This document shows positions 46,329 through 53,974 of a DNA stretch of 64,000 nt, piece after piece; position 1 is the stretch's first letter; every line of letters begins with the position of its first letter. This stretch comes from Eledone cirrhosa (Eukaryota): the NCBI GenBank assembly GCA_964016885.1, contig OZ024751.1:39432001-39496000 (forward strand), written 5' to 3'. The notes beneath the pieces were generated by a model. That model was given only the letters and a program-made list of their open reading frames with translations, made no database searches and was not told the origin of the DNA. The translations under genes and the position numbers were made by a program.

Positions 46329-46837
46329 GAAAATTATAGTAATTAACTTACTTACTTAAATTTCACTCCAACTAATTAGTTTATGAAAGGGAATATACAT
46401 AGTCTTCAAATGGAGATCATGGAGAAACCTTTTCTTCATCAGGGAGTCATTCTCAGCTAAGATACCTGGCATGCGTGGACACGGAACTTATACAAAAATA
46501 ATTCAGTGGATGGAAAAGAGCAAGCAGGGACTAAATTCCAAGACACTGAAAAAATCGATGTCACGTGATTGATTCTTTTGAATTTGCCACCGACCAAGAA
46601 GGCAGTGATTTTTTCAGTGTCTTGGAATTTAGTCCCCACTTGCTCTTTTCCATCCACTGAATTATTTTTGTATAAGTTCCCTGTGTCCGTGCATCGCCAG
46701 GTATCTTAGCTAAGAATGACTCCCTGATGAAGAAAAGGTTTCTCCATGATCTCCATTTGAATACTATGTATATTCCCTTTCAGAAACTAATTAGTTGGAG
46801 TGAAATTTAAGTAAGTAAGTTAATTACTATAATTTTC
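46329..46837. mobile_element. Fold-back Penelope-like element with ~230-bp arms
   Basis: Arms 46329-46556 / 46607-46837 with roughly ten differences; hammerhead in the arms. Confidence 0.8.
46719..46801 (+). ncRNA. Type I hammerhead ribozyme
   Basis: Stem I ACUCC/GGAGU; CUGAUGA 46724-46730; long imperfect stem II (GAAAAGG/CCCUUUC, A-A at base); GAAA 46783-46786; palindromic stem III CUAAUUAG; GUU site. Confidence 0.72.
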
Positions 46838-49800
46838 AGACTGGGTGATGTGTTGTTTCCTTGAGCAAGACACTTTATTTCACATTGCTCCAGTTTACTC
46901 AGCTGTAGAAATGAGATGATAGGACTGGGGTCCCTATCATTCCACTGCAAAGTGGTCGTGGAGGTGCCACGGCAAAAAAGCACCCAGCCCACACTGTAAA
47001 TGAGGTTGGTGTTAGGAAGGGCATCCAGTTGTAGAAATCAAGCCAGAATCAGTTCCCATCCCACCCTTGCAAGCAGGGAAAAGCGGACGTAAAATGAGGA
47101 TGATGATGATATATATACACAAACATCCCTGATATTCTCAGCTCTCCTTCCAGAAAGACATGCTGGAGTTTAAATACCAAAGAAGCAGGCAGACTGACGT
47201 ACTGGCAGATAACCAGAGCAGGATATGGCAGGGCAGGGCATGAAGGCCCAGAGGCTGATGGAAAGGTAAGGCAAAGTGGAGCATGAAGACCCACAGGTAG
47301 TGTGGAGCAGGGTAGCACATGAAGACCCACCAGCTGGAGGACAGGCAGGGCAGAGTGCAGGCATGTAGGTGGAAAAGTAGAGGAAGGTGGTGGGTTGTAG
47401 GTGGAGAGGTAGGGCAGTGCAGACATGTAGGTGGGGAGGTCGAACAGGATGGGGGCCTATGGGTGGACAGGTAGAGCTGGATGGGCTTGAAGGTGGATGG
47501 GCAAGCAAGGAATATTTGCAGCATGTTTATTTGATGGAGCATGTTTACATTTATATGGTAAACAGAAAACACATCTCTTGCTATATATATATATATATAT
47601 ATATATATATATATATATATATATATATATATATATATATATGTGTGAATATATGTATATATGTGTGTGAATATATATATATATATGATGTGTGTGTTTG
47701 TGTGGTGCATGGATGTGTGGATGTGTGTCGGTGCCAATCCAAACAACAGAGCTGGCAGATTTTACGCACTGTTCAAACAATAAGCACCAGCCTGGCTCCG
47801 ACAAATAAATAACTTGCGTCTTCAGATCTGCCCCAATTCAATAAAGGAACCACACACACACACATGCACACACGAACACATGCACATACAACCATATAAA
47901 CATACATGAGATAGAGACTTGCACATACATAAATATGTGCATATACACACAAGCACAGATAAACACATTCACACACATATACACACACACACATGAACAC
48001 AACCACTTAGAGTGGCACACAGAGACACACTGACACACACACATGTACACACTGACACACACATGTGCACACTGACACATATATACAGGTAGAAACAAAG
48101 ACACACACACACACACATATATACATATATATATATATACAAAGGGCCACATACATGTCCACAAACATTCACACAGACACACACATATACAGGCAGAAAC
48201 AAAGACACACACACACACATATATATATATATATATATATATATATATATATATATATATATATAAAGGGCCACATACATGTCCACAAATATTCACACAG
48301 ACACACACATACAGAGACACCCCAAAACACACCCACAGAGGGCAACAACACTACCCAAACTTAGTGGCTTTGATGAAATACTCATAATTCATAAAACTGA
48401 TAGATGTAAGTTTATGGCAGTGAAATTAAAAATATTAAAAATATATTTATTTTAAATAGATAAATAAACATTACAATGTTTATTTTATTATTATCATCAT
48501 TTTTTTTTCTTTTTACTTTCTTAGACTAAAAATATTAAAAAATTAATTTGAAATTAAAATATTCCCGATATACTGACATTACAAAAAATAAACAAAGAAA
48601 GTAAAATGAAATTTATTTTTAAATTATAAATATTAAAAAAAAAAAAAAATAATAAATTTTGTATATTAAAAAACGTGAATAATTTTTTTAAATGAGAAAT
48701 GTTTTAAAAAAAGTTTTTGGTTATCGAAAATAATTATTAAAAACTAAAGAAAAGAAATATAGAATTGCAATTGTCTGTTATATTGTATGAATGGTTTAAA
48801 ATTAGAACCCACATCTCTAAATAACAGAGTTTAATTAGTGAGGAGTATATAGTAAATTGTATTTACCATAAAACAGAGAAGACCTGTATTATTAAAAGAG
48901 AGCAGTATGAGAAACCATAGCAGGGAGAAATGCCAATATATTTCAACAGGAATTATTAAACATTGGTGATTTAATATTTTAAATTGCTTATGTGTATATA
49001 TATGTGTGCAAAAATGTGTATATATATATGTGTGTAAAAATGTATATACACACTTCAACAGCATTCTAATAAGTATTGCCTGTAGAGGTAAACAAAATGT
49101 GTATTTGTTTTTTGGGGTCACCCTATATATTATATATATATATATATATGTTATATATAAATAAGAGTGTGGTGAGTGTTTATATATATATATATATATA
49201 TGTGTGTGTTTGTGTGTATATATATGTATATATGCCTGCATGAATATATGGATGCATTTATAAGTACATATACATGCATACATTTTCACACACACACATA
49301 TATATATATATATATATAGTGCACCTGGTTTCATAATAAAAATTCAAAGTTGGTAGAGCACTCAATCCAAGGGAAGAATTGTGTTATAATATAGAATTTG
49401 TTTCTTATATTAACAGTACATTTTTCAAAATACACGTGTTTCACTGGGGGAGCCTAACAGACACTCAACTGTTGCCTGCTTTTGTTTTACTTTTTCTACA
49501 TGCCTAGTCACTAATAATTATTGCCCCTTTCTTTGGAACTCTCTAATGAAAAGAGAACTGAAGCAATACCAATACAAACATTCATTCTATGATGGCTGAA
49601 CTGAGATCTGAGTAATAGGTTAAGTAGCTAAATAGCTGTTGATTAATAGACATCTTTTTAACACTGTTGTGAGAGAAAATGGTAGGAAGGAAGATATGAA
49701 ATCACCATTTCTAAAACAAATCTAACACAAAGTGATTGTTACAGAACACTCTGGTTTTATTATATATATATATAAACATGCGTTATATATACACACAAAT

Positions 49801-50792
49801 CTGAATGATTGAGTACGGTGGTACATATGTACTACAGTATATTAGTGAGTATGGCCATGTCTCTTAGCATGTGTGTGTCTGTGTATACATGCTTATGTGT
49901 GTGTGTGTGCGTGTGTGTGTGTGCATGCAAGTGTATTTAACTGCTTATACAAACAGTGTTGGTGATAAAGCTTAACCCAAAACAAATGTTTATCATCATA
50001 AAGAAGGGAGAGAATACATAAAGAAGGAAGAACACAGTAGAATACAGAAGAATACAAAATACTACAAGAATATAAGAATACATGAGAATAGAAGAACAAG
50101 AATAGATCAATCAAAACTGACAGATTCAAACTTGAAACACACCCACACAGCAATGAAATCTTGGAAACAAATCATAGACTAGCCATCATTAATGTAATTA
50201 AACCAACATAATTACTGTTCTCTGTTCAGACATTCCTACCAACACCACCGCCAGCACAACCCCCTGCCACTCTTACCATGCCCTGCCAACCAAAGTTTAC
50301 ACAGATCCTTGCAAAGTTCTCAAACTTGCAGAATTTCAAAATAAAACAGAAAACTTCAGGAGAGAAAAAAATTTCTTTTCCTCCCCTCTCCTCTCATTTC
50401 CCCACCTCTCCTCTCCTCTCATCTCCCCACCTCTCCTCTCATCTCCTCTCCTTTCCTCCCCACTCCTCTCCTTTTCCCTCCTCTCATCTCCATTACAGTG
50501 TATATGGTGCAACTGTGGTTACATAACCAATTACTATTGCAGCACTCTGTCTTAGATTGTGTTTATGTATGTATGTGTTTGTATGTATATCTACACACAG
50601 ATATATATTTATATATATATATATATATATATATATCATCATCATCATCGTTTAACGTCCATCTTCCACGCTAGCATGGGTTAGACGGTTTTGTTCCATT
50701 TGATGCGGGAATGGTCGAGAGACCGTGTCTCCCTTGTATGGAAGTGTCTCTGGCAGGTTTTTTTTACAGCTGGATGCCCTTATATATATGTA

Positions 50793-50873
50793 CAGGCTAT
50801 CCCCCCAAAAAATATATACACATATCTATTAGAATGCTGTTGAAGTGTGTATACATTAGTTGGGGACACCCTG
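50793..50873. mobile_element. Tiny Tc1/mariner-type MITE
   Basis: TA|caggctatcccc ... ggggacaccctg|TA; related inverted fragment at 49040-49125. Confidence 0.65.
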
Positions 50874-52514: not shown

Positions 52515-52940
52515 CACACAACACACAGCAATACACAACAATACACAACACACAGCAATACACAATAATACACAACAATACACAACAATACACAACACAC
52601 AGCAATACACAACACACAGCAATACACAATAATACACAACACACAGCAATACACAACAACACACAGCAATACACAACACAGCAATACACAACAACACACA
52701 GCACACAACAATACACAACAATACATAGCAATACACAACACACAGCAATACACAACACACAGAAATACACAACAATACACAACACACAACACACAGAAAT
52801 ACACAACAATACACAACACATAACACACAGCAACACACAACAATACACAACACATAACACACAACAATATACAACACACAACACACAACAGCAACACAAC
52901 ACACTACACACAACACAGAAGTCACAACAAACATCACACA
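52515..52940. repeat. CA-rich minisatellite (caatacacaacacacag)
   Basis: Seen directly. Confidence 0.9.
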
Positions 52941-53533
52941 ATATGGAAGTCACAACATAAAGACAACTGTCTCTCTCTGTTGTCTGAGAAGCCAAGACAC
53001 ATCCAACAAGCCCAGTCTGAGAAAAGCAAGTTAATAATACACAATATAGAGCCTTATCCCTGATGCCAAGACACATCCATCAAACACTTCACATCAACAA
53101 TCAAGTTAACACTGCAACCAGGCACCATTTCATAGACATTGGTTCAATGGTCACAGTTGAACGGTCACAGTTGAATAGACACAGTTGAATGGTCAAAGTT
53201 AGGTGAAGCATAAAGCAGTAAAATTTCTCTTTAAAAATGTTCTTTTTTCAAATGGAATGGTGAATTAAAGGAATAATAACAAAAGAAATGTGTTTAATTA
53301 AAAAGAACAACGGAATTCTATGAATTAGTTGACAAGAAATACAAACCTACAGCCTACCTTGTGCTCTCGCTCTCTCTCTCTCTATATATATATACATATA
53401 AATGTATATATATACATGTATTTAAATGTATATATATACATGTATGTAAATGTATATATTTATATATATATGTAAATGTATATATTTATATATATATGTA
53501 AATGTATATATTTATATATATATATACATATAT

Positions 53534-53974
53534 GCAAAAGTTCTATTTAAAATTGTTGGGATACAACAAGTAAATATTTTTATAACTGATATAAAGCACT
53601 CCACAAATTTTTGGAGTAGATATACGATATTAATAAATGGAAACTATATTTATAAAACCATATTTATTTCATTATACATATTTCAGGGATACCACATTAA
53701 ATTATGGTATGCCTTCATATGACAAAATACAATATATAACAGTTTTACAAATAGGTTTGACGTACCCTTAAAATACAACCATTACTTTTATCTAGACAGC
53801 CTCCAAAAGTAATAGTTGTATTTTAAGGGTACGTCAAACCTATTTGTAAAACTGTTATATATTGTATTTTGTCTGATGAAGGCATACCATAATTTAATGT
53901 GGTATCCCTGAAATATGTATAATGAAATAAATATGGTTTTATAAATATAGTTTCCATTTATTAATATCGTATAT
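53534..53974. mobile_element. Fold-back Penelope-like element with 170-bp arms + tail
   Basis: Arms 53620-53789 / 53805-53974 (3 mismatches seen), 15-nt loop; tail 53534-53619 with ACTCC..GGAGTGCTT on minus; TA tracts both sides. Confidence 0.85.
53865..53929 (+). ncRNA. Type I hammerhead ribozyme
   Basis: Stem I UAUUUUGU/AUGAAAUA; CUGAUGA 53873-53879; stem II AGG-C-AUACCA/UGGUAU-C-CCU; GAAA 53910-53913; UAUGUA then UA site. Confidence 0.85.

Follow-up and report, generated by a model that had tools for sequence, protein, structure and literature searches.

Hammerhead Ribozymes in the Introns of COG1

The window analysed here, a stretch of 64,000 nucleotides from Eledone cirrhosa (contig OZ024751.1, positions 39,432,001 to 39,496,000; genome size 3.0 Gb), lies inside the COG1 gene and holds four hairpins, A to D, each formed by inverted copies of a repeat bearing a hammerhead ribozyme. 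The original prediction for this DNA was that the copies on the host-sense strand had been selectively broken, reflecting selection against self-cleavage of the precursor messenger RNA (pre-mRNA). The analysis suggests a different picture, in which the broken hairpin cores are likely to represent chance, neutral damage, whereas the sense strand is under-represented among intact ribozymes that stand alone.

COG1 extends over 144 kb of the minus strand (G000:C11:39402115-39546462). It was missed by a profile search with PF08700 and was mapped instead by a protein search; a 50-residue frame in the window shares 93% identity with cuttlefish COG1, with 54% of the query covered. The strand previously assigned to the gene is borne out by its tblastn exon matches, all of which are on the minus strand (59612-59519, 29683-29606, and 12419-12343, together with a weak match at 61478-61401, E 0.09). 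One 29.8-kb intron houses hairpins D, B, and A (the 58145, 53620, and 46329 hairpins), and the following intron houses hairpin C (the 16568 hairpin), so that all four are intronic, as had been claimed. The possibility that COG1 ends near 54700, which would place hairpins outside the gene, is ruled out by the exons at 29683 and 12419.

Five copies in the window show the type I core (CUGANGA, GAAA, and a U-H cut site), flanked by helices I, II, and III with helix I open, as recognised by a structural descriptor. The core consensus agrees with the available text of Cervera and De la Pena 2014 (PMC4209133). The closure of stem II is weak in family A, the repeat of hairpin A. These intact ribozymes (12637+, 16662+, 46724+, 53873+, and 58205-) reproduce the earlier observation that four of five intact cores are on the plus strand. 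Rfam hammerhead models gave no matches at the gathering score within the window. Across the oriented gene set described below, the descriptor matched 106 times, compared with 2, 3, and 0 times in shuffled controls, which places the ribozymes far above chance. Within genes, an intact ribozyme is met roughly every 18 kb (106 in 1.87 Mb).

The lesions reported earlier for the minus-strand arms of hairpins A and B are real (Table 1), the two core changes of hairpin B being adjacent mismatches among its three. The arms of hairpin A differ by seven substitutions and three inserted or deleted bases, and the loss of G12 (GAAA to UAAA) is one of the seven. For hairpin C, the minus arm does lack CUGAUGA, as stated, although not through a point change but through truncation, the end of the inverted copy lying within stem II. 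Hairpin D, already singled out as an exception, remains one and is the mirror case of C: here it is the plus arm that is a truncated inverted copy, which takes in GAAA and the cut site. A SINE-like (short interspersed nuclear element) repeat at 46831-47097 abuts the plus-arm end of hairpin A and may have removed its tail.

Table 1. COG1 exons and hammerhead-bearing features of the window (positions counted from the first letter of the window).
Feature	Position	Strand	Description
COG1 exon	59519..59612	minus	about residues 617-647 of the cuttlefish homologue; tblastn
COG1 exon	29606..29683	minus	about residues 648-673 of the cuttlefish homologue; tblastn
COG1 exon	12343..12419	minus	about residues 674-699 of the cuttlefish homologue; tblastn
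Hairpin A (46329 hairpin)	46329..46837		inverted pair; repeat family with a type I hammerhead per arm
Hairpin A hammerhead, host-sense	46365..46447	minus	CUGAUGA at 46442-46436 intact; G12 to U at 46383
Hairpin A hammerhead, antisense	46719..46801	plus	core intact; helix III palindromic; predicted cut after 46796
Hairpin B (53620 hairpin)	53620..53974		inverted pair; three arm mismatches; adjoins a (TA)n run
Hairpin B hammerhead, host-sense	53665..53729	minus	CUGAUGA to CAUAUGA at 53720-53719
Hairpin B hammerhead, antisense	53865..53929	plus	intact
Hairpin C (16568 hairpin)	16564..16772		plus arm a complete hammerhead (core 16662); minus arm an inverted copy of its 3' half, truncated
Hairpin D (58145 hairpin)	58105..58355		full intact hammerhead on minus (host-sense), core 58205
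Lone intact hammerhead	12607..12721	plus	antisense to COG1; without inverted partner
Old degenerate hammerhead copy	9754..9826	plus	core broken; antisense
Degenerate hammerhead copy	63161..63253	plus	core broken; antisense
Old degenerate hammerhead copy	63643..63739	minus	four core changes; sense

Core Damage in the Hairpins

Hairpins and lone copies were counted in 41 gene intervals oriented by exon matches (COG1, myosin, kinesin, ion-channel, and kinase models), comprising 1,803,300 bases read outside the window, in which intact, broken, and truncated copies were found by the descriptor and BLAST. Window copies and the duplicated copy L080 were excluded from the counts, a six-copy array at locus L154 was collapsed to one event, and the dynein and ABC intervals lie outside this 1.8-Mb set. 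Unless the window is mentioned, the counts refer to this set, and ratios are given as host-sense:antisense.

Selective mutation of sense cores in hairpins is unsupported in this material. Outward-facing pairs number 43, and 27 of them span the core in both arms; 23 of these are intact on both strands, three are broken in the sense arm, and one in the antisense arm. Counted by arm, breaks affect 4/33 sense and 1/29 antisense copies (Fisher p = 0.36), and 6/36 and 1/32 once the window is added (p = 0.11). In pairs with only one full intact core, that core is sense in four cases and antisense in two. The direction of the breaks is the one originally predicted, so that a weak effect may exist. The window itself, which was picked because of its strand pattern, contains two point events and two truncations, one truncation on each strand; this pattern lies within chance, as two independent breaks both fall on the minus strand with a probability of 0.25.

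The two families with point damage were compared with their relatives in samples of the 30 best-scoring loci each, in which divergence is understated. The double change at 53719-53720 is private among 41 family B arms, with a core change, read by eye, in one of the 39 others. It completes a perfect 8-base palindrome, and hence is likely to be a single template-switch event. Contigs of three sequencing runs over hairpin B are short, derive from thousands of copies, and are silent on this change. Core changes are present in 12 of the 41 other arms of family A, where the core is changing at the neutral rate (13/456 core versus 196/8594 non-core). Damage to the arms of hairpin A is about equal, with three substitutions and two small deletions on the minus arm and four substitutions on the plus arm. 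Strand-asymmetric mutation was rejected as a cause, as the non-core spectra are similar in sense and antisense copies; the accompanying comparison of core and non-core sites is uninformative, since its filter (at least three relatives) left 39 paired arms and removed all five broken ones.

Strand Bias of Lone Intact Ribozymes

A different result was obtained for lone copies, defined by the lack of an inverted partner within 3 kb upstream. Intact lone ribozymes are found 19 times in the sense and 45 times in the antisense orientation (p = 0.0016), or 13:36 with the strict descriptor alone. The 64 copies stem from 17 gene intervals, and the bias persists when labels are flipped per gene (p = 0.011; 12 genes versus 4). 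It runs in the same direction in the three batches in which the data were collected (14:27, 5:13, and 0:5), the trend having been noticed in the first, the second having been fetched later, and the third after a written prediction; the second and third combined give 5:18 (p = 0.011). Splitting the copies by the assembly strand of the host gene gives 8:20 and 11:25. Nested genes or distant partners may be hidden in the long intervals, and these would dilute the bias rather than create it. The part of the original prediction that concerns selection against sense ribozymes is unsupported for the hairpins at this sample size and finds support in the lone copies, with self-cleavage as a candidate cause.

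Paired and dead copies behave differently from the lone intact ones. Intact arms of pairs are evenly distributed (29:28; p = 0.025 against lone intact copies), and dead lone copies lean the other way (17:9; Fisher p = 0.002 against lone intact copies), as do the broken lone copies that keep a full-length core (9:5 versus 19:45, p = 0.028). Controls were scored in 1.75 of the 1.80 Mb: reverse transcriptase (RT) fragments retrieved by an RTE query stand at 54:63, the tails of LINEs (long interspersed nuclear elements) and SINEs at 68:74, and of seven other repeat families, six do not differ from even. The split is 10:26 for copies that share at least 90% identity with a relative. One old family is even (9:8), and its post hoc removal sharpens the sum of the remainder to 14:42.

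Probable Affiliation with Penelope-like Elements

The four hairpins are inverted, truncated 3' ends of hammerhead-bearing repeats, all of which are likely to belong to Penelope-like elements. The best evidence comes from the family of hairpin D, which at loci L100 and L149 continues without a break from an open reading frame, and at L150 forms the inverted arm beside a frame of 711 residues. This frame is related to that of L095, where an RT domain (RVT_1) is followed by a C-terminal GIY-YIG domain; hence, a frame of this type is linked to the ribozyme repeat in the D family at L100, L149, and L150, the Pfam domains having been scored on the relative L095 only, with three of the four frames below threshold. 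At L016, a rearranged junction separates family B from a neighbouring piece of related RT, and no reading frame was seen among the few copies of family C. An inverted, 5'-truncated second copy, a trait of Penelope elements, is present in the 43 outward-facing pairs. Each hairpin represents a dispersed family, whose other members either stand alone or form outward-facing inverted pairs, with spacers that vary in family B, and a first look at the genome gave 1137 candidates for family B and 2321 for family A, figures that are not copy numbers.

L150:1610-4009 and L095:2-2201 are young Penelope-like copies with frames of 711 and at least 582 residues, lying sense in kinesin and myosin introns, respectively, the former with an inverted arm attached. 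The copy of L150 that was counted as lone and antisense is actually this kind of structure, i.e., the inverted arm of a sense element. At least 36 clusters of hammerhead sequences were recognised in the first 1.2 Mb together with the family loci (L062-L246), with a density that is very uneven between genes.

Both the elements and their inverted form are already known. Pseudo-LTRs (pseudo-long terminal repeats) of Penelope elements carry dual hammerhead motifs on opposite strands about 100–700 bp apart, and the copies described here resemble them in their type I topology, a helix III that is short and palindromic, a stem II that often begins with one additional base, and the coexistence of many mostly truncated families in one genome, as given in the available text of Cervera and De la Pena (PMC4209133). 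Unlike those, several Eledone families have a long loop II, and that text contains no cephalopod and no analysis of host-gene orientation. The inverted truncated copy adjoining the main copy, the tail extension, and the (TA)n target bias of some clades find parallels in the accessible portion of Craig et al. 2021 (PMC8557442). In contrast to the insertions described there, most of those found here have shrunk to hairpins of 200–500 bp, both arms of which carry a ribozyme.

Animal non-LTR retrozymes are also Penelope-derived repeats with type I hammerheads, but they form tandem direct arrays instead of inverted pairs (bioRxiv 10.64898/2026.07.22.740005, text as available). The head-to-tail units of retrozymes are not seen among the window copies, which are inverted or lone. 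A retrozyme-like arrangement occurs elsewhere, in a myosin intron (L154:5127-7045, G000:C3), where six near-identical 310-bp hammerhead units stand head-to-tail beside an inverted arm.

Predicted Masking by the Inverted Arm and Alternative Explanations

The geometry of an outward-facing pair dictates that the complementary arm is transcribed ahead of the ribozyme, whichever strand the host gene occupies. The nascent RNA of a hairpin would then form a long duplex in which the ribozyme is hidden. In folding predictions, forcing the ribozyme fold costs +50.6 kcal/mol for hairpin D as pre-mRNA and +39.8 to +121 kcal/mol for hairpins C, B, and A read on the plus strand, compared with 0 for the lone copy at 12637. 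On this modelling, the ribozyme would be masked by its inverted arm and would offer selection little purchase. The neutrality proposed above for the broken cores follows from this predicted masking, which also accounts for the intact sense copy of hairpin D. A possible analogue is the intronic sense ribozyme of CPEB3, which is related to that of hepatitis delta virus (HDV) and reduces the output of its host gene until blocked by an antisense oligonucleotide, according to the available part of PMC10274809; unlike the repeats studied here, it is a single, domesticated, and conserved ribozyme of another class rather than a parasite-derived repeat. Long duplexes of this kind would also be substrates for adenosine-to-inosine (A-to-I) editing in a cephalopod.

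Lone copies are without this masking, and their insertions on the sense strand would be removed more often. The favoured reading, held at somewhat better than even confidence, is accordingly a combination of the two: breaks in hairpins are neutral under masking, and the lone sense copies are under real, purifying selection, which is inferred from their strand counts. What triggers this selection is a separate matter, on which RNA cleavage is ranked first, narrowly above signals for splicing or polyadenylation carried by that fragment, and is itself put forward as a tentative candidate. A full version, in which Penelope hammerheads, although almost inactive in vitro as monomers, cleave the pre-mRNA of the host in vivo so frequently that sense copies are purged from cephalopod introns, the inverted arm silences the ribozyme, and hairpins are the form tolerated within genes, is likewise possible but doubtful.

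Several observations weigh against neutral hairpin damage combined with selection on lone ribozymes. Hairpin breaks do lean towards the sense strand, 3:1 outside the window and 5:1 with it. The lone class was defined after the first batch, and the only batch to follow a written prediction has five copies. The seventh of the other repeat families, a transfer RNA (tRNA)-like SINE without a ribozyme, is biased as well (110:170); in its own direction, it lies host-sense 170 times and antisense 110 times (p = 0.0004; window copy at 45993-46186, relatives at L062-L241), the opposite of the usual strand bias of retroelements. Its window copy has A- and B-box-like motifs on the minus strand. The bias of the lone ribozymes is concentrated in fragments longer than 200 nt (6:22, versus 13:18 up to 200 nt, with lengths available for 59 of the 64), most of the dead copies are short, and a comparison of intact and dead copies restricted to short ones gives p = 0.074. 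Copies with a nearby AATAAA or ATTAAA stand at 9:26 and those without at 10:19; copies less than 90% identical to their nearest intact relative are even (20:20), with no overall depletion; and the sense survivors show no significant increase in folding cost (p = 0.19). As for the elements, no reading frame was found within 1.5 kb in any of the 30 family A loci. Cleavage in vitro was undetectable for a single minimal Schistosoma hammerhead (PMC4209133, available text), and an Anolis hammerhead needed the protein of the element (PMC11167929, available text).

Because the bias is strongest in the longer fragments, cleavage as its cause is rivalled by splice or polyadenylation signals and by insertion preference. 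The first of these overlaps with the favoured reading and is itself possible, at well below even confidence: other signals in the element end, such as a pyrimidine tract or cryptic splice site, a polyadenylation signal, or a promoter, would be selected against, and the ribozyme would only mark longer, younger fragments. Sense depletion of intronic retroelements through such signals is well known, long pyrimidine-rich tracts precede the ribozyme in families B and D, the length and hexamer distributions described above point the same way, and the inverted arm would hide these signals too. Nevertheless, dead copies with a polyadenylation hexamer lean sense (8:4), copies with a full-length core differ according to whether that core is broken or intact, and RT fragments show no bias.

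It is unlikely that there is no orientation effect at all and that small-sample noise was amplified by the choice of classes. Such an account could invoke the 64 copies in 17 intervals, the several subgroup tests, and the non-random choice of genes, but it is at odds with the agreement of the three batches, with the two later ones taken together, and with the gene-level permutation. Still less probable is that young Penelope families prefer to insert in the orientation opposite to transcription, or to the replication fork, and are not selected afterwards. This would fit a bias that is clearest in copies of at least 90% identity and absent overall in the others, as well as the strand bias of the ribozyme-free SINE; the longer arm of the hairpins stands at 17:22, indistinguishable from lone copies (p = 0.20), a noisy measure that does not separate insertion bias from selection. 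Against it, dead lone copies lean the opposite way, and Penelope coding fragments are even (5:5), four of them being the loci of the queries themselves or closely related ones. The least probable account is the original prediction, that sense cores in hairpins are active in cleavage and selection favours mutations breaking them: both two-core hairpins of the window are sense-broken, the breaks elsewhere and the combined counts lean accordingly, and the break in hairpin B is uncommon for its family, but 29 of 33 full-core paired sense arms are intact, the family A core mutates neutrally, masking is predicted, and the window was selected for its pattern.

Other Repeats in the Window

An open RTE-like LINE frame of 988 residues (37776-40742, minus) lies sense in a COG1 intron, and a second copy of this LINE, 99.6% identical and in the opposite orientation (1-2486, plus), is found 35 kb away. 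A COG1 intron also holds a minisatellite at 60039-61334, with about 31 copies of a 41-bp unit at 96% identity. Short hairpins at 33176-33319, 58679-58790, and 2903-3003 belong to another repeat family, in which no hammerhead was detected.

Implications for Hammerheads in Host Genes

In the text of the retrozyme study available (bioRxiv 10.64898/2026.07.22.740005), Xenopus retrozymes are depleted in introns, which is read as selection against genic insertion; 'antisense' does not occur in that text and 'strand' occurs once, as a software option, and no strand test was seen. Conserved intronic hammerheads are present in amniotes (PMC6155905, available part), so intronic copies can also be tolerated, and hammerheads have been counted in the giant squid genome (PMC6962438, available part). 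The literature search found no report of a strand bias of lone versus paired Penelope hammerheads, most subscription papers and the supplements of the cited papers being outside its scope.

On cleavage by Penelope hammerheads, the available texts report no monomer activity (PMC4209133) and a cleavage that is assisted by protein and dispensable for insertion in vitro (PMC11167929). The genome offers built-in controls in the form of paired and lone, intact and dead, and sense and antisense copies, and therefore strand counts can be used to read out ribozyme activity by population genetics. Should the bias of the lone copies track the integrity of the core, it would constitute genomic evidence of cleavage in vivo, and the inverted arm of Penelope-like elements would gain a role in their tolerance by the host.

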